64,000 bases of DNA, taken from the NCBI GenBank assembly GCA_014905635.1, contig JABVCE010000031.1, positions 124,001 through 188,000 of the forward strand, read 5' to 3'. Below the pieces are notes generated by a model that was not told the DNA's origin, did no database searches, and saw only the letters and a list, made by a program, of their open reading frames with translations. The stretch's first letter is position 1. Every line of letters begins with the position of its first letter. The translations under genes and the position numbers were made by a program. This document shows, piece after piece, positions 19,510 to 44,837 of this stretch. The DNA comes from Scenedesmus sp. PABB004 (lineage: Eukaryota).

Positions 19510-19544
<35 letters not shown>

Positions 19545-22500: not shown

Positions 22501-22548
22501 CAGCGCGGTCGGGATCGCAAATCGGTCTCGGCGCACCGTGGAGCGCAT
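19410..22548 (-). CDS. Plastid-targeted hypothetical protein, possibly NTF2/SnoaL-like
   Basis: MRST|AARAVIARAPAPRLAPL... transit peptide, many short spliced exons (GIDYLLKRISVGHEK, DDTFFALVEFKY, NVGFTHWRSRI, VDLFAPDGRLQ|DIWLFRDPMDFEEAIL), stop at 19410-19412. The fold call is inference. Confidence 0.6.
19513..19542. repeat. (GT)n microsatellite, intronic
   Basis: About 15 GT units. Confidence 0.9.
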
Positions 22549-24217: not shown

Positions 24218-25103
24218 GCGTGCGTGCGCATGCACGGGGCGCGACGGCGCGGGGTCAGCAGGAGCGGCGAGGAGAGGGAGCGAGAAGCAGACGCGGCCGC
24301 ACCGCGCGCCGGGCCTGCCGCCGCTGCTCCACATCCCGCCGCGGCTCCCGCTCTGTGTGGGCTGCCCGGCCGCTGTGACGACGGCCCAGTCGCGCTGCGG
24401 GCGTGGCGCGCAGACGTGGGCGAGGGAGCGAGCGCTCTGCTCGCCGCCGCTGCTGGCGCGGGCGCTGCCGCTGCCGCTGGTGCGGCGCAGCTGCTGCCGC
24501 TACTCTCGTGGCGCAGCAGCTGTGAAGTGAGTTGCCAACCCAACACAAAGCGCCGCGGCCGCGCGGCGCGCTGAACCCGGGGCGCAGCGCCGCCCGCCTG
24601 CCTCGCGTGTGTGCGACGAGTGCCTTGCTCCGCAGGCAAGCAATGCCGATGCAGAAATGCCAGTGCGTGCTGCGTCGCAGGAAACCATGCATCAAGTCAA
24701 AAAAGGGAAGCACGGTGGGCGCCAAGCAGTCCTCCGGCAAGCGGGGCAAGTGCGTGTGCGTGCAGCAGAGGTGGCTGTGCAGACGCGGAACGCACCGAGG
24801 AGTTGGTCGAACTGGCAAACTGAGCCCGGAGGGTGCGACTGGCAAGCCCAAAGGGATTGCGTGGGGTGCAGGGTTCGTCTGGCTGAAAGAATTGGGCGCG
24901 CCGCAGCGAGGCGAGGCGGTGAGACTGGAAAGCCCAAGGAAGTGCTGCTGTGCGTGGGTGCAGGGTTCATCTGCGTGAAACAATTGGGCGCGCCGCCGAC
25001 GGGCAGTGTCGGAAAGCCGGGCCCGGCAGACCCAGGCACAGGTGCTGTGTGTGCAGCCGCGCGCCAGTCGCGCGTGGCCGCCCCCGCTGAATGAGGCCGC
25101 CCC

Positions 25104-28100
25104 TCACGCGCAGCGCCGCGGCCGGCCGCGGCCGCCGTTGCAGCGCCCGCTGCAGCAGTCACGGTCGGCGCTGCACGTCGCGCCCGACGGCGCCCCGGTG
25201 CAGCACCAGCCGCCACGCGTGCACGCGCCGGCGCGGCCCGCGGTGGTGCAGGCCCTGCCCGGCTGTGTGAAGTAGGAGCACGAGCCGGAGCCAAGGCACG
25301 TCCCCACGACGCACTGCGCGTCCTGCCCCGCCGGCGGCGTGGTGCAGCTGCCGGCGTTGCACGCGCAGCGCAGGTCTGCCGTGCAGTCGGGCCGGTCGAC
25401 TGGGCACGCCGGCGCGGCGGGGCCCGGCGCCGTGCACGCGACGCAGCGGTTTGCGCCGCCGTCCTGGAGGCAGAACGGCGCCCAGGGGCTGAGCCAGCCG
25501 CACGTCGAGTCGCTCAGGCAGGCCTTGCACGCGCCGCCGGCGTCGCACACGCCGCGCGCGCGAGAGGCCTGCGTGCAGCCCGTGCCGGCGGGGTACACCG
25601 AAAACGCGCAGGTCTGCGCCGTCGTGCAGGTCGCGCGGATGCAGCCGCTGCTCATGCCGAGCGGCGGCCGGCAGTCGCTGCTCCGCCAGCAGCGCTGCAC
25701 GGGCGCCGGCGCGGGGCTCGGCGACGGCGACGGCGACGGCGATGGGCTGGGCGAGGCGGGCGACGGCGACGGTGACGGCGAGGCGGGATCCGGCGATGGC
25801 GACGGTGACGCAGGCCCGGGCGAGGGCGAGGGCGAAGCCGGATCTGTGGGCGGGCGGGCAGCAGGGCGGGGTCGGCGGCGCGGGTCTGGCGCGTGCCGCG
25901 GTGGTGCCCACCGCTGACCGCGGGACGGACGCCCTCACCTGGCGAGGGCGAGGGGCTGGGACTCTCGGCCGGCGCGGGGCTGGGGCTAGGGCTGACCGGC
26001 TCGGGGAGGGCGAGGGCGACGCCGGCTCGGGGGAGGGCGAGGGCGACGCAGGCTGGGGGCTCGGGCTGCGGCCGCCGTGCGCGCGTGAGAAGCAGCCGGC
26101 AGCGGGCGCGGCCGCGCCGCCGCCCGCCCGCGCGCGCGCAGCCCGCGCACGCACCTGGGGCTGGCCGGCGCCGGCGACGGCGACGCCGGGTCCGGGCTGG
26201 GCAGCGGGATCTCCTGGCCGACGAGCCGCGCCGCCTCGGCCTGCGCCGCCTCGACGTCCAGCAGCCGGCCGCCGATGCCGCCGCCCGAGACGTACGGCGT
26301 CGGCACGATCGTCGTGGTGGAGGTGAGGACGCGCTTGATGGTCGTCGCGTTGAGCGAGGGATAAAGGTTGCGCAGCGCGAGCGCCGCGCCCGACACAAAC
26401 GGGCAGGCCACTGCGGCGCGGGCGCGGCGCGCGGCGCGCCGCGCGTGGGCCGGTGCGCGGCGCGCGGGCGTGGGGGCGGGCGCGGCGCGGGCGCGGGCGC
26501 GGCGGCAGCAGCGGCAGCAGGCGGCGCGCACTGGAGGTGCCGGAGTAGAATGCGCCGCCGCCGCCGAGCACGGAGCTGTAGATGCCTGCCCCCGGCGCGG
26601 CGATGCCGACGGTCGGCCCAAAGTTTGAAAAGGACGTCAGCCGGTTGTTCGAATCGGTGGCGGCGACGGAGAGCACGCAGTCGAGGCCCGCCATGCCAGC
26701 GTAGGCGGCCGGGAAGCGCGCCGGCGACGCGTTGACGTCGACGCCGTCGTTGCCAGCGGCGCACACCCACAGCACGTCGGCGGCGCACGCCCCGCGGATT
26801 GCCTCGGCTAGAAGCGTGCTGAAGCCACCGCCACCCCAGCTGTTGGACATAACCTTGACGCCTGCCGCGATCATCTCTGCGGGGCAGGGGCGCGGGCCGG
26901 GGGCGGGCCGCGGTTCACGTTGGGCGCGCCGCCGGGCGCAGGGCGCAGGGCGGAGGGTGGCATGGGGCAGCGCGGAGGCCCGGGCGGCGGCGGCGGGGGC
27001 GGGGGGCGGCGCACCGTTGATGCAGTCAATGGCGTCCGAGGTGTAGCCGCCGTCGGCGGCCAGGAACTTGCAGGACACGAGGCGGGCCGCGCTGGCGACG
27101 CCGACGGGCGTGCCGGCGCCCGAGCCGTGCGCGGCGGCCATGATGCCGGCGCAGTGCGTGCCTGCGGCCGCGCGGGCGCGCGCGCGCGCAGTTTTGCTCG
27201 CTCGCTTGCCGGCGCCGCCGCGGGGCGCCGGGGCGGCGGCGGCCGTCCCGGCGGCCATGCGCGGTGCGCACCATGGGAGTCGGTGTCCATGCCCTTTGTG
27301 CTGTTGTTGCACACGGTCGTCAGCGGGTCGAGGCAGGCGGTCGACCGGCTGGTGTCGACGACGCCCGCCAGCTCGGGGTGCGTGTAGTCGATGCCCTGCG
27401 CGGCGCGGCGCGGCGCGGGCGGGCTGCCTATCGGCTGGCCGCCCGGCCACGGCTGGCGGGCGCGCCCGCGCGCCCGCGCGCCCGCACCGTGTCGATGACC
27501 GCGCCGGGCGTGAGCGTGCCGCCAAACGCGGGCAGCTTGGCCCACACGCGGTCGGCGCGCACGCGCGTCACGCCCCAGTAGCGCTTGTCCGCCGTGTCGC
27601 TGCACGTCGCGCCGCCGCCGCACTCGGCCGGCATCGCGAGCGCGGCGAGGGGCTCGTCCATCTCGGCCACCTCCACGTCCAGCCCCCGGCGCGCGTTGAG
27701 CCACGCGAGCAGCGCTGCCGCGCCGCCCGCGTCGCGCGCCTCGACGGCAAACGTGTTACGCGCCCGCATCGGGGACTGCGCCTTGAAGCCCGCCTGGCCC
27801 CGCACGCGCGCGCTGGCCTGGGTGATGCGGTCGGGGGAGAGCGAGTCCTTGTACTTGACCATCAGCCGCGTGCGCGGCAGCGTCGCGACGCGGTTGAACA
27901 GCTGCGCGGCGGCGGCGGCGCGGCGGCGGCGGCGGCGGCGGCGGGGAGGGGGTCACCGCCCGGTGCCGCAGGCGTCACCGCGCGTGCGCGCGCGTGCGCG
28001 CGGGCCGGCGCCCCGCCCAGGCCGCGCAGGCGTTCGCGAAGCGCGCGGGAACAGAGGTGCTGGTGCCGCGGCAACGCGTGCGCTCCACACAGCGGCGCGC

Positions 28101-28278
28101 CGCGGCGCGTTGGGCGCCGCGGAGCAGCCGCTGCTGCGGCGCCCGGGCGCCTCGCGCGCCGGGCCCCGCGCTGCGTCACTCCGTCACGCACCTGTTCGGG
28201 CGGCTCCTGCGCGCCGGCGCTGGCGAGGCAGGCCAGCGCGAGCACGACCAACGCGGACGACGCGGCAAGCGGCGCCAT
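25104..28278 (-). CDS. Secreted subtilisin (peptidase S8) with an (SP)n linker and a Cys-rich C-terminal domain
   Basis: Signal peptide MAPLAASSALVVLALACLASAGAQ; catalytic triad AVIDT|GID, HG|THCAG and GTSMACPFVSG (spliced); SNSWGGG and AAGNDG; SPSP repeats; Cys-rich end. Confidence 0.9.
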
Positions 28279-29104
28279 GCGCGGCCGTGCGCGTGCCAGG
28301 AGCGGCAGTCTGCGCCGCGCCACGCGTCGCAGAACTCCAGGCGGCCGCGCGGGGAGGGAGACGGTTGCGGGTCTGCTGGTGGCGCGCTCTCGGCGCGGGC
28401 TGCGGTCAGGGCAGCGCTCGCGATCGTGCGTGTGTTTGAAGGCTGGGTGCGGACTGCGGCGAGCGGGGCGACTGGCACGCGAGTGGGAGAGGCGCGGGGG
28501 CTGGTCCCGGACGCGCCGCGCGGCGGCCTTCCGTGACCCCGCACCGCGCGTCTCCGCAGAGCTTGGTCCCGGCGCGCCCGCCCGGTGGCACCGGCGCGCC
28601 GAGCACGCTCCCCGCCATGGTTTCAGGCCGCCGCGACGGCAGCGCAACGCTTGGGCCCGGCCGCGAACTTCTGCACGCGTGTGCGGCGGCGGAGCGCCTG
28701 CCGCGTGTGCGGGCGCGCTGGCGTGGGGTGGCGGTGCGTGAGCAGGGGGTGGTGGTGAACGCGCCGCAGGCGCGGAGGCGCGATCGCCCCGCACGCCGAC
28801 CCCGCCTTGCGCGGGCCAGTGCGGGCGGCGGCGCCCGGCGGCCCGGCGCCCGCGCCGCCGCGCGCGTGAGGGTCTCAGGCCCCGGGCCTGGACCGTGGGC
28901 GGCCGCACGCGGCGCGCCGCCGCCGGCACCCGCGCGCGAAAGCAGCGGCGCCGCAGCTCGCCGACGCCGCGGCCGTCGGCGCCCCCGCCGCGCGGCTGGC
29001 GCGCGGCGCGCGCGGCCAGGGCGCTAGCGCGGTCAGCGAGGAGCGCAAAACAGCGGCGGCTCGCAAACCCCGGCCGCTTGGCTGCCGGGTGGGGCTGCCG
29101 GGGG

Positions 29105-29110
29105 TATAAA
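29105..29110 (+). promoter_or_regulatory. Putative TATA box of repeat gene copy 2
   Basis: ggggTATAAAttc ~175 nt upstream of the ATG at 29283. Confidence 0.6.
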
Positions 29111-29282
29111 TTCACGCGCGCCCCCTGGCCGAGCACACAACCGCCTGTCCAGCTCGGCTGAAGCTCCCACAGCGCTCCCTGCTGCTTCTACGGCCAGCCA
29201 CGCGCTCGCACCAGCAGTCGTCGGGCTCGCCTCGCCGGTGACCGCCTTTTCCGGCAACTTCAAGCTGCGCCACCTCGCTGAG

Positions 29283-32200
29283 ATGGCCAACAAGGCGTTC
29301 TACGCCTACCGGGCCAAGCAGGCGGGCGCCGCGCGCGCCGGGGCGGCCACGGTGAGGCCGCGAGCTCCGGGGCTGCCGCCCGGGCAGCTGGGCCGCTGCC
29401 GCGCCGCGCGCGCCCGTACAGGGGTGTGTCTGGTCGACCTCCATCTGGGGCGAGCGCGCCCGACACCGCCGCGCGGCGCCAGCGCGCGGCCGGGCGCCGG
29501 CATGGCGCCCCACGCCCACGCCGCCGCCTGCGCCGCACCGCTGCCCCAGGGCCGCCACGCCATGCCCCAGGCGACCAAGACGGCAGTGTCTGTGCCCGTG
29601 GCGCGCGCCGGCGCGGCCAGCGAGGTGCGGCGCGAGCGGGACGCCCCGCGCCGCGAGAGAGGGCCGCCGCCGCGCTGCAGCCCCCTCCGCGCCCCCCTGC
29701 CGACGCCGGCTGCCGCCGCGCGCAGGCCACGGCCATGACCAGCGCGCCGGCACCGACCGCGCCCCCCGCCGCCAAGAGGAGCTACCTCGAGGCGGTCCTG
29801 GGGGTGCGCGCGCGCGCCGGCAGGCCCCCTAGGCAGAGGCCTCTGCGCTCCTCTCCGCTGCTCACGCCGGCTGCCGCCGCCGTGGCGCAGGCCGCGCCCA
29901 AGACCGAGGTGGCGCAGGCCGCGCCCAAGGTGAGCGAGGCGGTGCGCTGCGCGGTGCGGCGTGAGAGTGGCGCGGGACGCCAGCCTGGCGGACCGCTTGG
30001 CGCGTCCGGCTTGACGGCCCCCTCCACACACGGCTGCTGCTGACGCCACCTATCGCCGCCGCTGCCCGCAGCCCCTGCCCAAGCCCGCCGCGGCGGTGCT
30101 CAAGGCGGCGCCCGCGCCCACGGCCGCGCCCAAGGCCGCGCCCATGGCCGCGCCCGTGCCCAAGGCCGCGCCCAAGGCCGCGCCCGCGCCCCAGGCCGCG
30201 CCCAAGGCCGCGCCCGCGCCCAAGGCCGCGCCCAAGGCGCGCGCCGCCGAGGAGGTCGCCGCGCTGAAGGCGCGCGTCGCGGCGGCGGAGGGCAAGACCG
30301 AGGAGGCCGAGGCGCAGAGCGCCGCGCTCGCTGCCAGCCAGGTGCGGCGCGCTGCGGTCTGTGCGGCGCACGCGCTGGGCAAGCCCTGCCGCCATGCGGC
30401 CCCAGCCTGGCGCCCGCGTCTGCTCGCTCACGCGCCTGCTGCGTGCGCCCTGCAGGCCGCCGACGCGGCGCGCGCCGCCGAGGAGGTCGCCGCGCTGAAG
30501 GCGCGCGTCGCGGCGGCGGAGGGCAAGACCGAGGAGGCCGAGGCGCAGAGCGCCGCGCTCACCACCAGCCAGGTGCGGCGCGCTGCGGTCTGTGCGGCGC
30601 ACGCGCTGGGCAAGCCCTGCCGCGGTGCAGCCGCAGCTTTCGGCGCCCGCGTCTGCTCGCTCACGCGCCTGCTGCGTGCGCCCTGCAGGCCGCCGACGCG
30701 GCGCGCGCCGCCGAGGAGGTCGCCGCGCTGAAGGCGCGCGTCGCGGCGGCGGAGGGCAAGACCGAGGAGGCCGAGGCGCAGAGCGCCGCGCTCACCACCA
30801 GCCAGGTGCGGCGCGCTGCGGTCTGTGCGGCGCACGCGCTGGGCAAGCCCTGCCGCGGTGCAGCCGCAGCTTTCGGCGCCCGCGTCTGCTCGCTCACGCG
30901 CCTGCTGCGTGCGCCCTGCAGGCCGCCGACGCGGCGCGCGCCGCCGAGGAGGTCGCCGCGCTGAAGGCGCGCGTCGCGGCGGCGGAGGGCAAGACCGAGG
31001 AGGCCGAGGCGCAGAGCGCCGCGCTCACCACCAGCCAGGTGCGGCGCGCTGCGGTCTGTGCGGCGCACGCGCTGGGCAAGCCCTGCCGCGGTGCAGCCGC
31101 AGCTTTCGGCGCCCGCGTCTGCTCGCTCACGCGCCTGCTGCGTGCGCCCTGCAGGCCGCCGACGCGGCGCGCGCCGCCGAGGAGGTCGCCGCGCTGAAGG
31201 CGCGCGTCGCGGCGGCGGAGGGCAAGACCGAGGAGGCCGATGCGCAGAGCGCCGCGCTCGCTGCCAGCCAGGTGCGGCGCGCTGCGGTCTGTGCGGCGCA
31301 CGCGCTGGGCGAGCCCTGCCGCCATGCGGCCCCAGCCTGGCGCCCGCGTCTGCTCGCTCATGCGCCTGCTGCGTGCGCCCTGCAGGCCGCCGACGCGGCG
31401 CGCGCCGCCGAGGAGGTCGCCGCGCTGAAGGCGCGCGTCGCGGCGGCGGAGGGCAAGACCGAGGAGGCCGAGGCGCAGAGCGCCGCGCTCGCTGCCAGCC
31501 AGGTGCGGCGCGCTGCGGTCTGTGCGGCGCACGCGCTGGGCAAGCCCTGCCGCCATGCGGCCCCAGCCTGGCGCCCGCGTCTGCTCGCTCACGCGCCTGC
31601 TGCGTGCGCCCTGCAGGCCGCCGACGCGGCGCGCGCCGCCGAGGAGGTCGCCGCGCTGAAGGCGCGCGTCGCGGCGGCGGAGGGCAAGACCGAGGAGGCC
31701 GAGGCGCAGAGCGCCGCGCTCACCACCAGCCAGGTGCGGCGCGCTGCGGTCTGTGCGGCGCACGCGCTGGGCAAGCCCTGCCGCGGTGCAGCCGCAGCTT
31801 TCGGCGCCCGCGTCTGCTCGCTCACGCGCCTGCTGCGTGCGCCCTGCAGGCCGCCGACGCGGCGCGCGCCGCCGAGGAGGTCGCCGCGCTGAAGGCGCGC
31901 GTCGCGGCGGCGGAGGGCAAGACCGAGGAGGCCGAGGCGCAGAGCGCCGCGCTCACCACCAGCCAGGTGCGGCGCGCTGCGGTCTGTGCGGCGCACGCGC
32001 TGGGCAAGCCCTGCCGCGGTGCAGCCGCAGCTTTCGGCGCCCGCGTCTGCTCGCTCACGCGCCTGCTGCGTGCGCCCTGCAGGCCGCCGACGCGGCGCGC
32101 GCCGCCGAGGAGGTCGCCGCGCTGAAGGCGCGCGTCGCGGCGGCGGAGGGCAAGACCGAGGAGGCCGAGGCGCAGAGCGCCGCGCTCACCACCAGCCAGG

Positions 32201-35200
32201 TGCGGCGCGCTGCGGTCTGTGCGGCGCACGCGCTGGGCAAGCCCTGCCGCCATGCGGCCCCAGCCTGGCGCCCGCGTCTGCTCGCTCACGCGCCTGCTGC
32301 GTGCGCCCTGCAGGCCGCCGACGCGGCGCGCGCCGCCGAGGAGGTCGCCGCGCTGAAGGCGCGCGTCGCGGCGGCGGAGGGCAAGACCGAGGAGGCCGAG
32401 GCGCAGAGCGCCGCGCTCACCACCAGCCAGGTGCGGCGCGCTGCGGTCTGTGCGGCGCACGCGCTGGGCAAGCCCTGCCGCGGTGCAGCCGCAGCTTTCG
32501 GCGCCCGCGTCTGCTCGCTCACGCGCCTGCTGCGTGCGCCCTGCAGGCCGCCGACGCGGCGCGCGCCGCCGAGGAGGTCGCCGCGCTGAAGGCGCGCGTC
32601 GCGGCGGCGGAGGGCAAGACCGAGGAGGCCGAGGCGCAGAGCGCCGCGCTCACCACCAGCCAGGTGCGGCGCGCTGCGGTCTGTGCGGCGCACGCGCTGG
32701 GCAAGCCCTGCCGCGGTGCAGCCGCAGCTTTCGGCGCCCGCGTCTGCTCGCTCACGCGCCTGCTGCGTGCGCCCTGCAGGCCGCCGACGCGGCGCGCGCC
32801 GCCGAGGAGGTCGCCGCGCTGAAGGCGCGCGTCGCGGCGGCGGAGGGCAAGACCGAGGAGGCCGAGGCGCAGAGCGCCGCGCTCGCTGCCAGCCAGGTGC
32901 GGCGCGCTGCGGTCTGTGCGGCGCACGCGCTGGGCGAGCCCTGCCGCCATGCGGCCCCAGCCTGGCGCCCGCGTCTGCTCGCTCATGCGCCTGCTGCGTG
33001 CGCCCTGCAGGCCGCCGACGCGGCGCGCGCCGCCGAGGAGGTCGCCGCGCTGAAGGCGCGCGTCGCGGCGGCGGAGGGCAAGACCGAGGAGGCCGAGGCG
33101 CAGAGCGCCGCGCTCACCACCAGCCAGGTGCGGCGCGCTGCGGTCTGTGCGGCGCACGCGCTGGGCGAGCCCTGCCGCCATGCGGCCCCAGCCTGGCGCC
33201 CGCGTCTGCTCGCTCACGCGACCGCTGTGTGCGCCCTGCAGGCCGCCGACGCGGCGCGCGCCGCCGAGGAGGTCGCCGCGCTGAAGGCGCGCGTCGCGGC
33301 GGCGGAGGGCAAGACCGAGGAGGCCGAGGCGCAGAGCGCCGCGCTCGCTGCCAGCCAGGTGCGGCGCGCTGCGGTCTGTGCGGCGCACGCGCTGGGCGAG
33401 CCCTGCCGCCATGCGGCCCCAGCCTGGCGCCCGCGTCTGCTCGCTCATGCGCCTGCTGCGTGCGCCCTGCAGGCCGCCGACGCGGCGCGCGCCGCCGAGG
33501 AGGTCGCCGCGCTGAAGGCGCGCGTCGCGGCGGCGGAGGGCAAGACCGAGGAGGCCGAGGCGCAGAGCGCCGCGCTCGCTGCCAGCCAGGTGCGGCGCGC
33601 TGCGGTCTGTGCGGCGCACGCGCTGGGCGAGCCCTGCCGCCATGCGGCCCCAGCCTGGCGCCCGCGTCTGCTCGCTCACGCGCCTGCTGCGTGCGCCCTG
33701 CAGGCCGCCGACGCGGCGCGCGCCGCCGAGGAGGTCGCCGCGCTGAAGGCGCGCGTCGCGGCGGCGGAGGGCAAGACCGAGGAGGCCGAGGCGCAGAGCG
33801 CCGCGCTCGCTGCCAGCCAGGTGCGGCGCGCTGCGGTCTGTGCGGCGCACGCGCTGGGCAAGCCCTGCCGCCATGCGGCCCCAGCCTGGCGCCCGCGTCT
33901 GCTCGCTCACGCGCCTGCTGCGTGCGCCCTGCAGGCCGCCGACGCGGCGCGCGCCGCCGAGGAGGTCGCCGCGCTGAAGGCGCGCGTCGCGGCGGCGGAG
34001 GGCAAGACCGAGGAGGCCGAGGCGCAGAGCGCCGCGCTCACCACCAGCCAGGTGCGGCGCGCTGCGGTCTGTGCGGCGCACGTGCTGGGCAAGCCCTGCC
34101 GCGGTGCAGCCGCAGCTTTCGGCGCCCGCGTCTGCTCGCTCACGCGCCTGCTGCGTGCGCCCTGCAGGCCGCCGACGCGGCGCGCGCCGCCGAGGAGGTC
34201 GCCGCGCTGAAGGCGCGCGTCGCGGCGGCGGAGGGCAAGACCGAGGAGGCCGAGGCGCAGAGCGCCGCGCTCACCACCAGCCAGGTGCGGCGCGCTGCGG
34301 TCTGTGCGGCGCACGCGCTGGGCAAGCCCTGCCGCGGTGCAGCCGCAGCTTTCGGCGCCCGCGTCTGCTCGCTCACGCGCCTGCTGCGTGCGCCCTGCAG
34401 GCCGCCGACGCGGCGCGCGCCGCCGAGGAGGTCGCCGCGCTGAAGGCGCGCGTCGCGGCGGCGGAGGGCAAGACCGAGGAGGCCGAGGCGCAGAGCGCCG
34501 CGCTCGCTGCCAGCCAGGTGCGGCGCGCTGCGGTCTGTGCGGCGCACGCGCTGGGCGAGCCCTGCCGCCATGCGGCCCCAGCCTGGCGCCCGCGTCTGCT
34601 CGCTCACGCGCCTGCTGCGTGCGCCCTGCAGGCCGCCGACGCGGCGCGCGCCGCCGAGGAGGTCGCCGCGCTGAAGGCGCGCGTCGCGGCGGCGGAGGGC
34701 AAGACCGAGGAGGCCGAGGCGCAGAGCGCCGCGCTCACCACCAGCCAGGTGCGGCGCGCTGCGGTCTGTGCGGCGCACGCGCTGGGCGAGCCCTGCCGCC
34801 ATGCGGCCCCAGCCTGGCGCCCGCGTCTGCTCGCTCACGCGCCTGCTGCGTGCGCCCTGCAGGCCGCCGACGCGGCGCGCGCCGCCGAGGAGGTCGCCGC
34901 GCTGAAGGCGCGCGTCGCGGCGGCGGAGGGCAAGACCGAGGAGGCCGAGGCGCAGAGCGCCGCGCTCGCTGCCAGCCAGGTGCGGCGCGCTGCGGTCTGT
35001 GCGGCGCACGCGCTGGGCGAGCCCTGCCGCCATGCGGCCCCAGCCTGGCGCCCGCGTCTGCTCGCTCACGCGCCTGCTGCGTGCGCCCTGCAGGCCGCCG
35101 ACGCGGCGCGCGCCGCCGAGGAGGTCGCCGCGCTGAAGGCGCGCGTCGCGGCGGCGGAGGGCAAGACCGAGGAGGCCGAGGCGCAGAGCGCCGCGCTCAC

Positions 35201-38200
35201 CACCAGCCAGGTGCGGCGCGCTGCGGTCTGTGCGGCGCACGCGCTGGGCGAGCCCTGCCGCCATGCGGCCCCAGCCTGGCGCCCGCGTCTGCTCGCTCAC
35301 GCGCCTGCTGCGTGCGCCCTGCAGGCCGCCGACGCGGCGCGCGCCGCCGAGGAGGTCGCCGCGCTGAAGGCGCGCGTCGCGGCGGCGGAGGGCAAGACCG
35401 AGGAGGCCGAGGCGCAGAGCGCCGCGCTCGCTGCCAGCCAGGTGCGGCGCGCTGCGGTCTGTGCGGCGCACGCGCTGGGCAAGCCCTGCCGCCATGCGGC
35501 CCCAGCCTGGCGCCCGCGTCTGCTCGCTCACGCGCCTGCTGCGTGCGCCCTGCAGGCCGCCGACGCGGCGCGCGCCGCCGAGGAGGTCGCCGCGCTGAAG
35601 GCGCGCGTCGCGGCGGCGGAGGGCAAGACCGAGGAGGCCGAGGCGCAGAGCGCCGCGCTCACCACCAGCCAGGTGCGGCGCGCTGCGGTCTGTGCGGCGC
35701 ACGCGCTGGGCAAGCCCTGCCGCGGTGCAGCCGCAGCTTTCGGCGCCCGCGTCTGCTCGCTCACGCGCCTGCTGCGTGCGCCCTGCAGGCCGCCGACGCG
35801 GCGCGCGCCGCCGAGGAGGTCGCCGCGCTGAAGGCGCGCGTCGCGGCGGCGGAGGGCAAGACCGAGGAGGCCGAGGCGCAGAGCGCCGCGCTCACCACCA
35901 GCCAGGTGCGGCGCGCTGCGGTCTGTGCGGCGCACGCGCTGGGCAAGCCCTGCCGCCATGCGGCCCCAGCCTGGCGCCCGCGTCTGCTCGCTCACGCGCC
36001 TGCTGCGTGCGCCCTGCAGGCCGCCGACGCGGCGCGCGCCGCCGAGGAGGTCGCCGCGCTGAAGGCGCGCGTCGCGGCGGCGGAGGGCAAGACCGAGGAG
36101 GCCGAGGCGCAGAGCGCCGCGCTCACCACCAGCCAGGTGCGGCGCGCTGCGGTCTGTGCGGCGCACGCGCTGGGCGAGCCCTGCCGCCATGCGGCCCCAG
36201 CCTGGCGCCCGCGTCTGCTCGCTCACGCGCCTGCTGCGTGCGCCCTGCAGGCCGCCGACGCGGCGCGCGCCGCCGAGGAGGTCGCCGCGCTGAAGGCGCG
36301 CGTCGCGGCGGCGGAGGGCAAGACCGAGGAGGCCGAGGCGCAGAGCGCCGCGCTCACCACCAGCCAGGTGCGGCGCGCTGCGGTCTGTGCGGCGCACGCG
36401 CTGGGCGAGCCCTGCCGCCATGCGGCCCCAGCCTGGCGCCCGCGTCTGCTCGCTCACGCGCCTGCTGCGTGCGCCCTGCAGGCCGCCGACGCGGCGCGCG
36501 CCGCCGAGGAGGTCGCCGCGCTGAAGGCGCGCGTCGCGGCGGCGGAGGGCAAGACCGAGGAGGCCGAGGCGCAGAGCGCCGCGCTCACCACCAGCCAGGT
36601 GCGGCGCGCTGCGGTCTGTGCGGCGCACGCGCTGGGCGAGCCCTGCCGCCATGCGGCCCCAGCCTGGCGCCCGCGTCTGCTCGCTCACGCGCCTGCTGCG
36701 TGCGCCCTGCAGGCCGCCGACGCGGCGCGCGCCGCCGAGGAGGTCGCCGCGCTGAAGGCGCGCGTCGCGGCGGCGGAGGGCAAGACCGAGGAGGCCGAGG
36801 CGCAGAGCGCCGCGCTCGCTGCCAGCCAGGTGCGGCGCGCTGCGGTCTGTGCGGCGCACGCGCTGGGCGAGCCCTGCCGCCATGCGGCCCCAGCCTGGCG
36901 CCCGCGTCTGCTCGCTCACGCGCCTGCTGCGTGCGCCCTGCAGGCCGCCGACGCGGCGCGCGCCGCCGAGGAGGTCGCCGCGCTGAAGGCGCGCGTCGCG
37001 GCGGCGGAGGGCAAGACCGAGGAGGCCGAGGCGCAGAGCGCCGCGCTCACCACCAGCCAGGTGCGGCGCGCTGCGGTCTGTGCGGCGCACGCGCTGGGCA
37101 AGCCCTGCCGCGGTGCAGCCGCAGCTTTCGGCGCCCGCGTCTGCTCGCTCACGCGCCTGCTGCGTGCGCCCTGCAGGCCGCCGACGCGGCGCGCGCCGCC
37201 GAGGAGGTCGCCGCGCTGAAGGCGCGCGTCGCGGCGGCGGAGGGCAAGACCGAGGAGGCCGAGGCGCAGAGCGCCGCGCTCACCACCAGCCAGGTGCGGC
37301 GCGCTGCGGTCTGTGCGGCGCACGCGCTGGGCAAGCCCTGCCGCCATGCGGCCCCAGCCTGGCGCCCGCGTCTGCTCGCTCACGCGCCTGCTGCGTGCGC
37401 CCTGCAGGCCGCCGACGCGGCGCGCGCCGCCGAGGAGGTCGCCGCGCTGAAGGCGCGCGTCGCGGCGGCGGAGGGCAAGACCGAGGAGGCCGAGGCGCAG
37501 AGCGCCGCGCTCACCACCAGCCAGGTGCGGCGCGCTGCGGTCTGTGCGGCGCACGCGCTGGGCAAGCCCTGCCGCCATGCGGCCCCAGCCTGGCGCCCGC
37601 GTCTGCTCGCTCACGCGCCTGCTGCGTGCGCCCTGCAGGCCGCCGACGCGGCGCGCGCCGCCGAGGAGGTCGCCGCGCTGAAGGCGCGCGTCGCGGCGGC
37701 GGAGGGCAAGACCGAGGAGGCCGAGGCGCAGAGCGCCGCGCTCACCACCAGCCAGGTGCGGCGCGCTGCGGTCTGTGCGGCGCACGCGCTGGGCAAGCCC
37801 TGCCGCGGTGCAGCCGCAGCTTTCGGCGCCCGCGTCTGCTCGCTCACGCGCCTGCTGCGTGCGCCCTGCAGGCCGCCGACGCGGCGCGCGCCGCCGAGGA
37901 GGTCGCCGCGCTGAAGGCGCGCGTCGCGGCGGCGGAGGGCAAGACCGAGGAGGCCGAGGCGCAGAGCGCCGCGCTCACCACCAGCCAGGTGCGGCGCGCT
38001 GCGGTCTGTGCGGCGCACGCGCTGGGCAAGCCCTGCCGCCGTGCAGCCCCAGCCTGGCGCCCGCGTCTGCTCGCTCACGCGACCGCTGTGTGCGCCCTGC
38101 AGGCCGCCGACGCGGCGCGCGCCGCCGAGGAGGTCGCCGCGCTGAAGGCGCGCGTCGCGGCGGCGGAGGGCAAGACCGAGGAGGCCGAGGCGCAGAGCGC

Positions 38201-41200
38201 CGCGCTCGCTGCCAGCCAGGTGCGGCGCGCTGCGGTCTGTGCGGCGCACGCGCTGGGCGAGCCCTGCCGCCATGCGGCCCCAGCCTGGCGCCCGCGTCTG
38301 CTCGCTCATGCGCCTGCTGCGTGCGCCCTGCAGGCCGCCGACGCGGCGCGCGCCGCCGAGGAGGTCGCCGCGCTGAAGGCGCGCGTCGCGGCGGCGGAGG
38401 GCAAGACCGAGGAGGCCGAGGCGCAGAGCGCCGCGCTCGCTGCCAGCCAGGTGCGGCGCGCTGCGGTCTGTGCGGCGCACGCGCTGGGCGAGCCCTGCCG
38501 CCATGCGGCCCCAGCCTGGCGCCCGCGTCTGCTCGCTCACGCGCCTGCTGCGTGCGCCCTGCAGGCCGCCGACGCGGCGCGCGCCGCCGAGGAGGTCGCC
38601 GCGCTGAAGGCGCGCGTCGCGGCGGCGGAGGGCAAGACCGAGGAGGCCGAGGCGCAGAGCGCCGCGCTCGCTGCCAGCCAGGTGCGGCGCGCTGCGGTCT
38701 GTGCGGCGCACGCGCTGGGCAAGCCCTGCCGCCATGCGGCCCCAGCCTGGCGCCCGCGTCTGCTCGCTCACGCGCCTGCTGCGTGCGCCCTGCAGGCCGC
38801 CGACGCGGCGCGCGCCGCCGAGGAGGTCGCCGCGCTGAAGGCGCGCGTCGCGGCGGCGGAGGGCAAGACCGAGGAGGCCGAGGCGCAGAGCGCCGCGCTC
38901 ACCACCAGCCAGGTGCGGCGCGCTGCGGTCTGTGCGGCGCACGCGCTGGGCAAGCCCTGCCGCGGTGCAGCCGCAGCTTTCGGCGCCCGCGTCTGCTCGC
39001 TCACGCGCCTGCTGCGTGCGCCCTGCAGGCCGCCGACGCGGCGCGCGCCGCCGAGGAGGTCGCCGCGCTGAAGGCGCGCGTCGCGGCGGCGGAGGGCAAG
39101 ACCGAGGAGGCCGAGGCGCAGAGCGCCGCGCTCACCACCAGCCAGGTGCGGCGCGCTGCGGTCTGTGCGGCGCACGCGCTGGGCAAGCCCTGCCGCGGTG
39201 CAGCCGCAGCTTTCGGCGCCCGCGTCTGCTCGCTCACGCGCCTGCTGCGTGCGCCCTGCAGGCCGCCGACGCGGCGCGCGCCGCCGAGGAGGTCGCCGCG
39301 CTGAAGGCGCGCGTCGCGGCGGCGGAGGGCAAGACCGAGGAGGCCGAGGCGCAGAGCGCCGCGCTCGCTGCCAGCCAGGTGCGGCGCGCTGCGGTCTGTG
39401 CGGCGCACGCGCTGGGCGAGCCCTGCCGCCATGCGGCCCCAGCCTGGCGCCCGCGTCTGCTCGCTCACGCGCCTGCTGCGTGCGCCCTGCAGGCCGCCGA
39501 CGCGGCGCGCGCCGCCGAGGAGGTCGCCGCGCTGAAGGCGCGCGTCGCGGCGGCGGAGGGCAAGACCGAGGAGGCCGAGGCGCAGAGCGCCGCGCTCACC
39601 ACCAGCCAGGTGCGGCGCGCTGCGGTCTGTGCGGCGCACGCGCTGGGCGAGCCCTGCCGCCATGCGGCCCCAGCCTGGCGCCCGCGTCTGCTCGCTCACG
39701 CGCCTGCTGCGTGCGCCCTGCAGGCCGCCGACGCGGCGCGCGCCGCCGAGGAGGTCGCCGCGCTGAAGGCGCGCGTCGCGGCGGCGGAGGGCAAGACCGA
39801 GGAGGCCGAGGCGCAGAGCGCCGCGCTCACCACCAGCCAGGTGCGGCGCGCTGCGGTCTGTGCGGCGCACGCGCTGGGCGAGCCCTGCCGCCATGCGGCC
39901 CCAGCCTGGCGCCCGCGTCTGCTCGCTCACGCGCCTGCTGCGTGCGCCCTGCAGGCCGCCGACGCGGCGCGCGCCGCCGAGGAGGTCGCCGCGCTGAAGG
40001 CGCGCGTCGCGGCGGCGGAGGGCAAGACCGAGGAGGCCGAGGCGCAGAGCGCCGCGCTCGCTGCCAGCCAGGTGCGGCGCGCTGCGGTCTGTGCGGCGCA
40101 CGCGCTGGGCAAGCCCTGCCGCCATGCGGCCCCAGCCTGGCGCCCGCGTCTGCTCGCTCACGCGCCTGCTGCGTGCGCCCTGCAGGCCGCCGACGCGGCG
40201 CGCGCCGCCGAGGAGGTCGCCGCGCTGAAGGCGCGCGTCGCGGCGGCGGAGGGCAAGACCGAGGAGGCCGAGGCGCAGAGCGCCGCGCTCACCACCAGCC
40301 AGGTGCGGCGCGCTGCGGTCTGTGCGGCGCACGCGCTGGGCAAGCCCTGCCGCCATGCGGCCCCAGCCTGGCGCCCGCGTCTGCTCGCTCACGCGCCTGC
40401 TGCGTGCGCCCTGCAGGCCGCCGACGCGGCGCGCGCCGCCGAGGAGGTCGCCGCGCTGAAGGCGCGCGTCGCGGCGGCGGAGGGCAAGACCGAGGAGGCC
40501 GAGGCGCAGAGCGCCGCGCTCACCACCAGCCAGGTGCGGCGCGCTGCGGTCTGTGCGGCGCACGCGCTGGGCAAGCCCTGCCGCGGTGCAGCCGCAGCTT
40601 TCGGCGCCCGCGTCTGCTCGCTCACGCGCCTGCTGCGTGCGCCCTGCAGGCCGCCGACGCGGCGCGCGCCGCCGAGGAGGTCGCCGCGCTGAAGGCGCGC
40701 GTCGCGGCGGCGGAGGGCAAGACCGAGGAGGCCGAGGCGCAGAGCGCCGCGCTCACCACCAGCCAGGTGCGGCGCGCTGCGGTCTGTGCGGCGCACGCGC
40801 TGGGCAAGCCCTGCCGCGGTGCAGCCGCAGCTTTCGGCGCCCGCGTCTGCTCGCTCACGCGCCTGCTGCGTGCGCCCTGCAGGCCGCCGACGCGGCGCGC
40901 GCCGCCGAGGAGGTCGCCGCGCTGAAGGCGCGCGTCGCGGCGGCGGAGGGCAAGACCGAGGAGGCCGAGGCGCAGAGCGCCGCGCTCACCACCAGCCAGG
41001 TGCGGCGCGCTGCGGTCTGTGCGGCGCACGCGCTGGGCAAGCCCTGCCGCGGTGCAGCCGCAGCTTTCGGCGCCCGCGTCTGCTCGCTCACGCGCCTGCT
41101 GCGTGCGCCCTGCAGGCCGCCGACGCGGCGCGCGCCGCCGAGGAGGTCGCCGCGCTGAAGGCGCGCGTCGCGGCGGCGGAGGGCAAGACCGAGGAGGCCG

Positions 41201-43172
41201 AGGCGCAGAGCGCCGCGCTCACCACCAGCCAGGTGCGGCGCGCTGCGGTCTGTGCGGCGCACGCGCTGGGCAAGCCCTGCCGCCGTGCAGCCCCAGCCTG
41301 GCGCCCGCGTCTGCTCGCTCACGCGCCTGCTGCGTGCGCCCTGCAGGCCGCCGACGCGGCGCGCGCCGCCGAGGAGGTCGCCGCGCTGAAGGCGCGCGTC
41401 GCGGCGGCGGAGGGCAAGACCGAGGAGGCCGAGGCGCAGAGCGCCGCGCTCGCTGCCAGCCAGGTGCGGCGCGCTGCGGTCTGTGCGGCGCACGCGCTGG
41501 GCGAGCCCTGCCGCCATGCGGCCCCAGCCTGGCGCCCGCGTCTGCTCGCTCATGCGACTGCTGCGTGCGCCCTGCAGGCCGCCGACGCGGCGCGCGCCGC
41601 CGAGGAGGTCGCCGCGCTGAAGGCGCGCGTCGCGGCGGCGGAGGGCAAGACCGAGGAGGCCGAGGCGCAGAGCGCCGCGCTCACCACCAGCCAGGTGCGG
41701 CGCGCTGCGGTCTGTGCGGCGCACGCGCTGGGCGAGCCCTGCCGCCATGCGGCCCCAGCCTGGCGCCCGCGTCTGCTCGCTCACGCGCCTGCTGCGTGCG
41801 CCCTGCAGGCCGCCGACGCGGCGCGCGCCGCCGAGGAGGTCGCCGCGCTGAAGGCGCGCGTCGCGGCGGCGGAGGGCAAGACCGAGGAGGCCGAGGCGCA
41901 GAGCGCCGCGCTCGCTGCCAGCCAGGTGCGGCGCGCTGCGGTCTGTGCGGCGCACGCGCTGGGCGAGCCCTGCCGCCATGCGGCCCCAGCCTGGCGCCCG
42001 CGTCTGCTCGCTCATGCGCCTGCTGCGTGCGCCCTGCAGGCCGCCGACGCGGCGCGCGCCGCCGAGGAGGTCGCCGCGCTGAAGGCGCGCGTCGCGGCGG
42101 CGGAGGGCAAGACCGAGGAGGCCGAGGCGCAGAGCGCCGCGCTCGCCACCAGCCAGGTGCGGCGCGCTGCGGTCTGTGCGGCGCACGCGCTGGGCGAGCC
42201 CTGCCGCCATGCGGCCCCAGCCTGGCGCCCGCGTCTGCTCGCTCACGCGCCTGCTGCGTGCGCCCTGCAGGCCGCCGACGCGGCGCGCGCCGCCGAGGAG
42301 GTCGCCGCGCTGAAGGCGCGCGTCGCGGCGGCGGAGGGCAAGACCGAGGAGGCCGAGGCGCAGAGCGCCGCGCTCGCCACCAGCCAGGTGCGGCGCGCTG
42401 CGGTCTGTGCGGCGCACGCGCTGGGCGAGCCCTGCCGCCATGCGGCCCCAGCCTGGCGCCCGTGTCTGCTCGCTCATGCGACCGCTGCCGTGCGCCCTGC
42501 AGGCCGCCGACGCGGCGCGCGCCGCCGAGCAGGCGGCCGCGCTCAAGGCGCACAAGGTCGCGCTGGCGCGGGCCAAGGCCAAGGCGGCGAACGCCGAGGC
42601 GCAGAACGTGGCGCTGGCCGCCGAGGTCGCCGAGCTGCGCGCCGAGGCGGAGCGCCAGCGGCCCTTCCGCGAGGCCTGCGCGCACACGCAGCGCGACCTG
42701 TGGGTGAGTTCGCGCGCCGCTGGGCTGCACGTGCGGGCGCCGACATGCCAGCACAGCGCTGACCCTGCCCCGCGCCGTGCCCCGCCCCCCATCCACGCAG
42801 TCCAAGTGCGCGGAGTTCGAGGATATGGAGGCGCAGGTGGCCGACCTGCAGGCCAAGCTGGCCGCGGCCGAGGCCAAGCTGACCGCGGCCGTCGCCAAGC
42901 CGGCCGAGGCGTGCGGCAGCCAGGGCAGCCTCGGGCGCGTGCAGACGCTGCCGAAGGGCTGCAGCGCGGCCTGCGACGGCGACCGCGGCAGCGGCGAGGC
43001 GCGGCCGGCCACGCCGCGCACGCCCAGCCGCCAGGTGTCGGGCACCGGCGGGCGCTTTGAGGGGCAGGCGCTGCAGCAGGCGCTGGCTGCGGAGCAGCAG
43101 CAGTGGCAGGCGGGCAGGCGCCGCGGCGGCGGCCGCCGCGCGAGCCGCCTGAGCGGCGGGAGCGGCTGGTAG
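29283..43172 (+). CDS. Repeat-exon coiled-coil protein, copy 2 (~59 exons, predicted ~2,390 aa)
   Basis: ATG at 29283; exon 30072-30341; 52 x 117-nt exons; exons 42503-42703 and 42801-43172 (TAG). The measured exon lengths are multiples of 3 and the boundaries are GT-AG. Confidence 0.8.
30238..42502 (+). repeat. Tandem exon-intron array, 52 full units (35 x 231 bp + 17 x 233 bp) plus a partial first exon
   Basis: Exon ends at 30341 and 42387 are 12,046 bp apart = 52x231 + 17x2. The 17 long introns (gcagctttcggcgcc) were counted directly. Confidence 0.95.
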
Positions 43173-43214
43173 GACGGCAGCTGTTGTGTGTCAGCTGGGG
43201 GCTGAGGTATAGCC

Positions 43215-43292
43215 GTGTCTGATCAGACACATTGATGATAAAGTGATGGGAGCTAGACCTCATGAGTTCTAGCTCCCATCACTTTATCATCA
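43215..43292. repeat. Two adjacent palindromes (16 bp perfect; 60 bp with one mismatched pair)
   Basis: gtgtctgatcagacac at 43215-43230 and tgatgataaagtgatgggagctagacctca/tgagttctagctcccatcactttatcatca at 43233-43292. Confidence 0.95.
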
Positions 43293-44255
43293 TTCCATGC
43301 TTTCGCCGTCATCACTTTCCTCCTCCGCAGTTTTGGTGCCCATCACGTCTAGACATCCCTCATCATCATTACATAATGTCATGGCAGCCGCAGTCCCATC
43401 ACGTCCTTGCCCTGTCCTGAGCCCATCGCGTCCTCGTTTGTGTGTGTCCTAACCACCCCCGTCGGGTGCCATGCTGCGCACTTCATCAGTTCATTACCAT
43501 CCTTCTGCTGCCATTCCACCTCCTCGCTTTCGAAATTTCCATCCATCCCGTCCTGCCACCCCATCAACCTCATCTCTTAGAGCTCCCTCTGGCCACCGCG
43601 GGGAATAAGCGCAGCTGCGGCCGTCGCTCAGCGGCGAGCTCACTGCGCACGTGCTGTGCTGGAACACGCGCACGCAGGGATGGTGCGTGCTGCCGTGCGT
43701 GCTGCCGGGCGCGCGGTGTGTCTGGTGTTTGAGTGTGGCGGCGTGTGGGGCTTGGTCGGCTGGCCGCCGGCTGCCGCTGTGTGTGCGGGCCGCACCGAGG
43801 GCTTGCGGCCGCTGCTGCAATGACGCAGCGGCCAGGGAGAGGGAGGGAGGGGGGTCTCTGGTGCAGCAACGATGCGCAGGCCCCTGTGCGCGGGAGGGTG
43901 GGTGGCTTCGGAGCGCCGCCGTGCGTGCTGCCGGCCGCTGGCACGCGCAATAACTGGCGTCTGGGTGCGGCTGTGTGTGGCCCCCTGGCCAGCCGGTCGC
44001 CGCCGCTGTTGTTTGCGTGTGGGGCACTGGCTTCGCGTCTGCGCACGAGTAAGTTGGCCGCCTCCACCGCCTCCACCGCGCGCGTGCGCCGTCCCGCGCC
44101 GGACCCACGCGCCCGCGCTCCGCCGCCGCCGCCGCGGGCAGCGCCCTCACCTCGCCGCACCCCCAGCACAGGCAGGCAGGCACCCCTCCCGCCGACATCC
44201 CGACCCCCCCACCTGCAGTGCAGTCAGCCCCACCCGCCGCGCCCCCCCCCCTCTC

Positions 44256-44431
44256 AGCCAAAGATGGTGCCAAAGATGTCGGCCGCCGCGCCGCCCGTGG
44301 CCTTGCCGCCGCCGCCCGCAGCGCGCGGCGCGGGCGGCGCCATGTGCGCGCTGCGCCGGTTGCGCGGGCGTGCCGCGCCGGCCTGCCGCGCGCGCGCGCT
44401 GCTGACCTCGGCGCTCGCGTGGCGGTCCAGG
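44256..44431 (-). pseudogene. Orphan duplicate of the last exon of the first coiled-coil gene
   Basis: Encodes LDRHASAEVSSARARQ...AADIFGTIFG as at 3819-3996, but no upstream exons of that gene are present here. Confidence 0.7.
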
Positions 44432-44837
44432 CTGCAGGGGGACAGCCACACGTCATGGCAGGAAGATCAGAGATGCTCAACTCGCTGACGCAGCCCCCGC
44501 TGCCAGGCACGCGAGGTCCGGCCGCGCAGCCTGGGCCGCCGTTGCCGGCAGCGCGCGCGCCAGCCAGCGCCGCGGCGACAGACACCACCACGACACAGTG
44601 CGGCCAGCACGCACTGCGGGGCGGCACCTGCCGCTGCCTTTCGTCAAGCGCACGCGAGCGGTGCCCCGCCGCCGCTTTGAACCGCGCGCTGACAGCTGCG
44701 GGGCCGCGGCCTCACCTCCGCCCGCCCGCCGCCCTCAGACGCACACCCGCTCATCCGCGCCCACCGACGCATCGGCCGGCACGCTCGCCCATGCGGCGCT
44801 AGCGCACGGGCACACGCCGCCCCTCCCTCCGCTGCCG

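Follow-up and report, generated by a model that had tools for sequence, protein, structure and literature searches.

Genes assembled from tandem copies of a whole exon together with its intron are a kind already known, from spider silk, from the kringle IV type 2 (KIV-2) region of human LPA, and from the LRR exons of Ectocarpus. Here we describe a 64-kb stretch of DNA from Scenedesmus sp. PABB004 (contig JABVCE010000031.1), in which a 12-kb array of 53 near-identical exon-intron units most likely encodes a 39-residue repeat. "The window" below denotes this whole stretch, and all coordinates refer to it. We favour, with moderate confidence, the view that the array belongs to the longer of two head-to-head paralogues of a lineage-restricted nuclear gene, whose product would be a modular helical, probably two-stranded rod expanded by unit duplication.

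In spiders, MaSp2 (studied in Argiope) and the flagelliform spidroin genes have near-identical small introns between the exons that encode the repeat modules. These introns are on average 97.6% alike and, it has been suggested, may aid the duplication and homogenisation of the repeats; conversion between genes has been found (PMC9779670). The KIV-2 unit of human LPA is an exon-bearing segment of 5.6 kb whose copy number sets the size of the protein, with more than 40 isoforms described (PMC6314250). In the ROCO genes of Ectocarpus, each 72-nt exon, its length divisible by three, encodes one LRR of 24 residues (PMC3341825).

Three proteins provide further points of comparison. The lamin-like NUP-1 of trypanosomes is large and acidic (pI 5.07), is almost entirely coiled coil, and contains 17 near-perfect repeats of 144 residues. 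As described in PMC3313915, the number and size of the NUP-1 repeats vary between species and the repeats are near-identical within a gene, BLAST relatives are absent outside the lineage, and the length of the protein is estimated from ~1.5 Å per residue. The trypanosome proteins MARP-1 and MARP-2 are of high molecular weight and consist largely of tandem 38-residue units, in which a microtubule-binding motif has been demonstrated (PMC2289396). Tropomyosin is an acidic two-chain coiled coil with alanine clusters in its core and pseudo-repeats of 39-40 residues, each of which corresponds to one actin subunit (PMC4714992).

The repeat array and its gene

Tandem Repeats Finder (TRF) places the array at 30236-42551, with a period of 231, 53.2 copies and 97% matches. 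When the region is parsed by its splice motifs, 53 donors of the form CAG|GTG[C/T]GG are found, with 52 spacings of either 231 bp (35) or 233 bp (17), and the resulting 53 exon-intron units occupy 30236-42502 on the plus strand. The 12-kb tandem array proposed in an earlier reading of the window, referred to below as the sequence-only reading, is thus borne out. The limits given there, 30238 and 42502, correspond to the start of homology to the unit, inside exon 5, and to the last base of the last array intron.

The unit consists of a 117-nt phase-0 exon, encoding 39 residues, and a GT..CAG intron. All 52 array exons, from the first (30456-30572) to the last (42271-42387), are exactly 117 nt long. 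The 53 array introns have GT..AG borders throughout and measure 114 nt (35), 116 nt (17) or 115 nt (1), so that length variation within the array is confined to the introns; the 2 bp of extra length noticed before in 17 units are accounted for by the 116-nt introns. The exon at 30456-30572 translates to AADAARAAEEVAALKARVAAAEGKTEEAEAQSAALTTSQ. Sequence diversity in the array is low, with four exon variants, ten intron variants and 14 unit types. The exon variants differ at four nucleotide columns only (TT, AA or AT near the end, and one Glu-to-Asp change), and the mean pairwise difference among units is 1.41 in 117 nt for the exon and 4.38 in ~115 nt for the intron.

The partition into exon and intron and the reading frame proposed for the unit are supported by the fact that a gene model closes through the unique sequences on both sides of the array. 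This gene, which we call copy 2, lies on the plus strand and comprises 59 exons, with the ATG at 29283, the stop codon at 43170-43172, a coding sequence of 7188 nt and a product of 2395 residues; the only stop codon is the terminal one. All 58 introns have GT..AG borders and are in phase 0, in agreement with what had been claimed for the junctions. The internal exons are all multiples of three, from which it follows by simple arithmetic that any subset of exons stays in frame, as had also been stated.

A TATAAAT box at 29105-29111 (plus strand, identified by direct reading) lies ~175 nt upstream of the start codon, with no ATG in between, and is kept in copy 1, the paralogue described below. 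Exon 1 (29283-29351, 69 nt, 23 residues) starts with the ATG and is identical in copy 1. It is followed by exons 2 (29550-29624, 75 nt, with AG/GT borders), 3 (29726-29803, 78 nt) and 4 (29891-29929, 39 nt), all of phase 0-0, and by exon 5 (30072-30341, 270 nt), in which basic Lys/Ala/Pro repeats of the KAAP type are joined in frame to a first, partial helical unit. Downstream of the array, exon 58 (42503-42703, 201 nt, 67 residues) has a unit-like start and continues into a canonical heptad segment resembling a leucine zipper. Exon 59 (42801-43172, 372 nt including the TAG stop codon) encodes a helix, a disordered stretch containing Cys, Ser, Gly and Pro, a short helix, and an Arg/Gly tail. 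All these exons are on the plus strand, as is a probable 3' untranslated region (UTR) of lower GC content (55%) at 43173-43650, the 3' limit of which is approximate. The 3' UTR contains a 60-nt palindrome (43233-43292) formed by two abutting 30-nt arms that are 97% complementary; the matching place in copy 1 has a single arm only. A local inverted duplication may have produced the palindrome, or a small mobile element may have left it behind as a footprint.

The short inverted paralogue

Self-BLAST of the window shows that copy 2, together with ~460 bp upstream and ~1.27 kb downstream, is contained in a duplicated segment (28822-44441, plus strand) that is inverted with respect to a second segment at 3808-9594 (minus strand). 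The two alignments (8165-9594 versus 30245-28822, 94.4% identity; 3808-4970 versus 44441-43263, 86.8% identity) place the two copies head to head, ~19 kb apart on one contig. The coding region of copy 1 (5019-9131, minus strand, ATG at 9131) has 17 exons and encodes 745 residues. Its array, detected by TRF at 5829-7830 on the minus strand as 8.7 units of 231 bp, contains eight exons of 117 nt and one degenerate exon of 105 nt. The paralogue therefore has the eight full units that had been counted in it, and the unit number differs between the two copies, 53 versus eight plus one degenerate. The window contains no further array of this kind at a TRF score of at least 200.

Over the 300 bp that precede the start codon, the two copies are 97.6% identical. 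Copy 1 keeps the tail of exon 5 and a 66-nt exon (7946-7881), both of which are missing from copy 2, and the loss in copy 2 amounts to an in-frame fusion (270 nt, compared with 291 + 66 nt in copy 1). The exon length differences between the copies (201/204, 372/375, 270/291 and 117/105) are all multiples of three. The intron length differences include 99/101, 94/87, 104/97 and 114/115/116/111/112, several of which are not multiples of three. The seven unique internal exons of copy 1 are likewise all multiples of three, for which the chance would be ~0.0005 at one-in-three each. The dN/dS ratio between the paralogues is 0.47 (16 synonymous and 22 non-synonymous differences).

Two regularities extend beyond the arrays. 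Every intron of both paralogues is in phase 0, and every internal exon, the unique ones included, is a multiple of three. Moreover, the same 16 bases open the intron after exon 2 and intron 6 of copy 1, and the array intron starts in a similar way. Exon-intron duplication may have built up the entire gene.

Evidence for coding and splicing

The window has a G+C content of ~80% throughout and contains no N. At this composition, 235 open reading frames (ORFs) of at least 180 residues are spread over all six frames, and a lone ORF therefore means nothing. The case for coding and splicing was built from the nucleotide sequence alone, and draws on codon composition, splice signals and the comparison of the two copies. 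The GC content at codon positions 1, 2 and 3 is 0.82, 0.62 and 1.00 in the unit exon and 0.76, 0.63 and 0.98 in the unique exons, and the third-position value (GC3) of eight Pfam-supported exon stretches in the window is 0.89-1.00. The similarity of the proposed exons to the Pfam-supported ones fits coding sequence. The 114-nt array intron, read in frame, has a GC3 of just 0.76, and in the UTR-like flanks the GC content drops to 55-69%. An unspliced reading from exon 5 meets a stop codon at 30729, after 219 residues, so that a long product needs splicing.

The array introns carry the same signals as an intron in an unrelated gene of the window. An intron of ~118 nt within the DnaJ domain reads CAG|GTGC ... 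CTCAC ... GCAG|G, matching the array intron in its signals and length class; CTCAC is a branch-like motif common to both. The first 31 and the last 13 bases of the array introns are invariant. Variable columns are fewer in the exon (4 of 117) than in the intron alignment (15 of 117; Fisher p = 0.015). The Rfam search of the whole window matched no family, and hence the repeated intron is not explained by a snoRNA or other known RNA. Two other ways of reading the array were rejected. An antisense gene would have CT..AC introns on the minus strand, with no GT..AG borders, and the wrong GC3 pattern; an unspliced ORF is stopped at 30729. We conclude that the units of the array are most likely coding and spliced into mRNA.

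The sequence-only reading had taken the confinement of length variation to introns, and the shared phase of the junctions, as a sign of real splicing and of selection on the protein frame. The partition and the frame hold, but as a test of selection the argument was overstated. Sixteen of the 17 long introns are identical and the seventeenth is one base off, which means that a single ancestral variant was spread by unit duplication and does not amount to 17 observations; the phase-0 junctions are inherited from one founder unit and provide no test of selection either. Constraint on the frame is better, and moderately well, supported by the paralogue comparison than by the pattern within the array.

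A separate observation concerns intron retention. The 35 array introns of 114 nt (of 53 in all, 30342-42502) are free of in-frame stop codons, and retention of one of them would add 38 residues, basic in character and including Cys and Pro, with the frame kept. Retention of the 116-nt introns (17) or of the 115-nt intron (1) would shift the frame.

The predicted protein

The predicted product of copy 2 has a mass of 234 kDa and a pI of 4.7, and contains 41% Ala and 14% Glu. Its first 145 residues have a pI of 11, and the first acidic residue appears at about position 48; the N-terminus gives the impression, no firmer than that, of an organelle transit peptide. The repeat unit has a net charge of -3 and consists of 41% Ala, 10% Val+Leu, 15% Glu and 10% Lys+Arg.

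In AlphaFold2 predictions, exon 5 lacks regular structure over residues 1-53 (pLDDT 56-67) and is a single unbroken helix over residues 54-88 (pLDDT 80-90). Exon 59 is predicted to form a helix at 3-31 and another at 86-106, followed by a tail, with pLDDT values below 50 at 36-79. The 39-residue unit is thus predicted to be α-helical. As 39 is not a multiple of 7, identical units cannot hold plain heptads, and each must contain one four-residue stutter. A period of 39 residues can be divided into four heptads and one hendecad (4 x 7 + 11), so that a unit has 11 turns and 11 core positions. The core of the best 39/11 register is made up of A4, A7, V11, L14, V18, A21, T25, A28, S32, L35 and Q39; it contains all four large hydrophobic residues of the unit (V11, L14, V18, L35) and no charged residue. 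Three g-e' pairs in the five regular heptads are complementary in charge (E10-K15, R17-E22 and K24-E29), and there is no repulsive pair. Among 20000 shuffles of the unit, the core score was matched by 836, the pairs by 23, and both together by three. The AlphaFold2 helix and the 39/11 register thus uphold the helical, coiled-coil-compatible character that had been attributed to the unit.

The heptad score of the unit is 4.4 of 8, compared with 6.8 of 8 for the strongest stretch in the C-terminal 190 residues, which makes the C-terminal segment a stronger and more conventional heptad stretch than the unit. A complex prediction with two 39-residue units scored 0.03 against a mark of 0.32; it included no controls and is evidence neither for nor against association. 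At ~0.15 nm per residue, and if the helix is continuous, the 53 units would extend over ~306 nm and those of copy 1 over ~51 nm, close to the ~300 and ~50 nm estimated before.

Searches for relatives

We found no recognisable family for this protein, and here the wider searches, which included the unique C-terminal exons, lead to the same view as the sequence-only reading. Seven exon translations, submitted to Pfam as single exons, gave nothing beyond chance (E values: BMFP 0.14, DivIC 0.24, ABC_tran_CTD 0.22, DUF2076 0.6). Compared with PDB sequences, the unit, exon 58 and exon 59 had no match below E 0.13; exon 58 weakly and non-significantly resembles a leucine zipper in the PDB (E 0.26). 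A word-indexed search of 5.8 billion protein clusters with the C-terminal exon and exon 5 returned none at E <= 0.01, and an exhaustive HMMER search of the 39-residue unit against 1.84 billion representatives, which has low power for single diverged units, returned 0 at E <= 0.001. Metagenome locus scans with exons 59 and 58 produced 596 pattern matches each, none of which was confirmed. The best match of exon 59 in the ESM Atlas (0.84) was an unnamed Chlorophyta cluster below threshold. Word searches of the open-access literature for algal tandem exon-intron coiled-coil genes found no description of the gene, which is no proof of its absence in print. The products of both paralogues are missing from the searched collections, as this genome's proteins generally seem to be, and the lack of relatives is therefore weak evidence.

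Several known families were considered as candidates. The tropomyosin profiles (PF00261 and PF12718) had no match at E <= 1 in the seven exon translations, and no tropomyosin chain was found in the PDB at E <= 10. Group 3 LEA proteins were rejected because there was no LEA_4 match at E <= 1 and the unit is not divisible into 11-mers (39 = 3 x 11 + 6). The repeat of SF-assemblin is 29 residues long, with four heptads and a skip residue; SF-assemblin and striated-fibre proteins were rejected because of the period of 39, not 29, and because the Pfam matches at E <= 1 were confined to the four chance-level ones given above. A relationship to pyrenoid linkers was also rejected, as known linkers are basic and the unit is acidic.

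Growth of the array and copy number

The 14 unit types follow each other irregularly and with no period, and exact repeats within the array reach 907 bp at most. A stretch of ~1.8 kb returns almost exactly at a shift of 4861 bp, equal to 21 units, which points to multi-unit duplications. Units 3-5 of copy 1 (6720-7298, minus strand) are 100% identical, in exon and intron, to some of the units of copy 2, although the flanks of the two arrays differ by 4.5-5%; this argues for gene conversion between the inverted arrays. With the unit types in irregular order and no exact repeat exceeding 907 bp, accurate long reads can anchor the array. Distinguishing markers are less than 1 kb apart, and an artefactual copy number is therefore not favoured.

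Two metagenome runs share 4-5% of the sampled sequence words with the window. In one of these (run X2), short freshwater-metagenome contigs match the 3' ends of both paralogues separately (42390-43700), one 122-nt piece has two differences, and a loose end is equal to the 3' UTR of copy 1. This suggests that the organism or a close relative is present in the freshwater metagenome at low depth, and is uninformative on the array itself.

Neighbouring genes and other features of the window

A Pfam scan of 71 long frames outside the arrays yielded matches for nine of them at E <= 1e-5, corresponding to pieces of Pkinase, Peptidase_S8, DnaJ, DUF1731, Cnd1_N, stromalin SCD and kinesin. The DnaJ and kinesin domains are each divided between frames, which identifies the window as intron-bearing eukaryotic nuclear DNA. 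On the plus strand, the matches mark genes for a protein kinase (~12.6-13.2 kb), condensin Cnd1 (~45.6 kb) and a kinesin (~60.3-61.6 kb); on the minus strand, they mark genes for a DUF1731 protein (~9.8 kb), a DnaJ protein (~23.7-24.0 kb), a subtilase (~26.5-27.2 kb) and the cohesin subunit stromalin/SCC3 (~57.5 kb). An ESM Atlas search with the neighbouring kinase confirmed it as a eukaryotic kinase. The neighbours on both sides (9600-28800 and 44500-64000) are thus ordinary nuclear housekeeping and cell-cycle genes, split by introns, and have no evident tie to the repeat gene.

The window also contains several perfect microsatellites: (CAG)21.7 at 14344-14408, which lies within the long frame bearing the protein kinase domain and possibly encodes a poly-Gln or poly-Ala tract; (GCG)17.7 at 17573-17625; (GCCGC)10 at 309-358; and (GCCGCGCC)6.9 at 47825-47879.

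Discussion

The reading that we favour, two head-to-head paralogues of a rod gene grown by unit duplication, starts from the array, the gene model, the reading frame, the paralogy of the two copies and the helical, coiled-coil-compatible pattern of the unit. To these it adds, conditionally, splicing, an oligomeric state, a mechanism of expansion and a cellular role. The protein would begin with a basic, unstructured part containing Lys/Ala/Pro repeats, continue as a long acidic α-helical rod, and close with a heptad coiled coil, a disordered stretch and an Arg/Gly tail, in this order. Each symmetric 117-nt exon would hold one structural period of 39 residues, or 11 turns, and be followed by an intron of ~114 nt. 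Unequal crossing-over or replication slippage would add or remove whole modules of 39 residues (~5.8 nm), and since the units are near-identical and the exons multiples of three, gain or loss of a module leaves the frame intact. Copy 2 would have expanded in this way to 53 units (2395 residues, ~300 nm if continuous), copy 1 keeping eight and a degenerate ninth (745 residues, ~50 nm), and gene conversion would homogenise the units within each array and between both arrays. The most probable role of the product is a structural one: two parallel strands would form a rod, held in place by the basic N-terminus, that could serve as a tether, a spacer or a subunit of a filament. A ruler or tether function is plausible as a hypothesis.

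A number of our own results weigh against this reading. Between the paralogues, the unique exons show 38 differences in 837 nt and the introns ~28 in 620 nt, ~4.5% in both cases, which indicates weak constraint. The lower variability of exon columns within the array is reduced to a contrast of 3 versus 10 (p = 0.08) when linked changes are counted as events. The structural support is limited by the AlphaFold2 input, which consisted of single exons as single sequences with no alignments. The weights in the register test were ad hoc, and the pairs had already been seen when the g-e' test was devised. Large hydrophobic residues occupy just four of the 11 core positions, the rest being four Ala, Thr, Ser and Gln, and such a core is weak. 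A Fourier analysis of Kyte-Doolittle hydropathy gives an amplitude of 15.5 at 39/11 (3.545 residues) and of up to 30 elsewhere, and no harmonic of 3.5 residues dominates. The count of 53 units comes from one assembly. Finally, no relatives were found, so that conservation cannot be used as support.

Some of these points raise the question of whether the repeat is a coiled coil at all. The unit could instead be a monomeric, Ala-rich single helix or a partly disordered acidic spacer, with dimerisation, if any, through the C-terminal heptads only. Its high Ala and low Val+Leu content, its low heptad score next to that of the C-terminal segment and the missing 3.5-residue harmonic are all in keeping with this idea, and peptides rich in Ala that also contain Glu and Lys/Arg can be stable as isolated helices. 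We nevertheless regard it as doubtful, although it is the alternative that we take most seriously, because a charge-free 39/11 stripe combined with three complementary g-e' pairs is rare among shuffled sequences, and because the unit lacks the richness in Glu and Lys/Arg that is typical of known single α-helix domains. Another alternative accepts the gene as real but sees in the 53 units a run-away expansion of the minisatellite type, neutral or slightly deleterious; copy 1 would be the working gene, and copy 2, its rod length without function, would be decaying or tolerated. The units are indeed so alike that no selection is needed to keep their frame, and their phase-0 symmetry goes back to a single founder. 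The weak constraint suggested by the dN/dS ratio and by the equal exon and intron divergence would fit as well, though it is silent on which copy is affected, and the end of exon 5 and the 66-nt exon, both present in copy 1, are gone from copy 2. This loss is in frame, however, there is no stop codon or frameshift across 7188 nt, the splice signals are invariant in 53 of 53 introns with exon columns less variable than intron columns, and the promoter region and start codon are conserved between the copies. We therefore consider a run-away expansion unlikely.

The remaining alternatives concern the assembly and the coding nature of the array. Since the copy number comes from one assembly, in which a ~1.8-kb stretch recurs almost exactly at a 4861-bp shift, the 53 units could be an over-expansion or mis-join of a shorter array, or the paralogues could be mis-assembled haplotypes. 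We give little credence to such an artefact. The irregular order of the 14 unit types, with no exact repeat above 907 bp, speaks against it, and a gap-free 64-kb contig across 12 kb of 97% repeats implies that long reads were used. Structural changes separate the paralogues in addition to a divergence of 4.5-5%, and a single contig carries both, in inverted orientation and with 19 kb between them; short metagenome contigs match their 3' ends separately. The view that the exon-intron appearance is a coincidence, the array being either a non-coding satellite or a sequence read without splicing or from the opposite strand, is hardly credible. In its favour are the abundance of long ORFs in all six frames at 80% GC and the open frame of the 35 introns of 114 nt. 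The unspliced reading ends after 219 residues, however, introns on the minus strand would be CT..AC, and a GC3 of 1.00 is reached in the proposed frame only. Furthermore, the array is flanked by unique exons, a TATA box, a start codon, a stop codon and a low-GC 3' UTR, all of which are duplicated in the paralogue, and it matches no Rfam family.

If the favoured reading of a duplicated, expanded rod gene is extended to function, the short (~50 nm) and long (~300 nm) orphan rods might act as true cellular spacers or rulers, between a surface bound by the Lys/Ala/Pro head and a partner of the C-terminus, and be tunable in steps of 39 residues (~5.8 nm) by unequal crossing-over. Nebulin is an example of an exon-modular ruler. 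We think the spacer or ruler proposal in this specific form quite improbable. Still bolder variants, suggested by analogy, would make the protein a tropomyosin-like lining of filaments, because the period equals the 39-40-residue actin period, or a nucleoskeletal tether like lamins or NUP-1 with a head resembling histone H1.

If expressed as modelled, the gene would be an unusually clean case of rod length written as exon count, with one period per symmetric exon. Short and long versions side by side would make rod length a simple genetic variable for cellular distance. With this locus, a protist would join the few known cases (silk, LPA and certain receptor genes of algae) of genes whose repeats are delimited by homogenised introns that probably also drive their expansion. 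For annotation the locus carries a warning, since genes of this sort, with 80% GC and 53 near-identical units, can easily be mis-assembled, collapsed or missed by annotation.

Comparison with known systems

The repeat gene shares two features of tandem exon-intron genes: its unit holds a whole exon and a whole intron, and its exons are symmetric. It differs from the spider silk genes, which encode secreted animal proteins with Gly/Ala/Pro motifs in much larger ensemble repeats, in being a protist gene with 53 units of only 231 bp, each encoding a 39-residue helical module, and there is no sequence relation. The LPA KIV-2 region is alike in having a tandem unit with whole exons and introns, but as described it has two exons per unit, encodes a globular kringle, and shows documented polymorphism between individuals. 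The Ectocarpus genes are closer in that they are algal, have one structural repeat per exon, and keep their frame upon gain or loss of exons. Their exons, however, have been reported as diversified (candidate receptors) and not homogenised, and they encode LRR and TPR solenoids, not a helical rod.

At the protein level, the closest analogues are giant repeat proteins confined to one lineage, namely NUP-1 and the MARPs of trypanosomes, as judged from their published descriptions. NUP-1 differs in its longer repeat, in its nuclear-lamina role, which is experimental, and, going by the published description, in having no introns. For MARP-1 and MARP-2, the likeness lies in the length of the unit, 38 residues compared with 39. 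The period of exactly 39 residues also matches the 39-40-residue period of tropomyosin (PMC4714992). Tropomyosin, however, has unbroken heptads and non-identical periods, whereas the exact repeat of the rod unit forces a stutter every 39 residues. By our own geometric estimate, the hydrophobic stripe would rotate by ~60° per unit, and there would be no quasi-equivalence of the tropomyosin kind. With no profile match and broken heptads, the repeat gene is not a member of the tropomyosin family. It is best placed with the tandem exon-intron genes, as one whose unit is a single 39-residue helical period.

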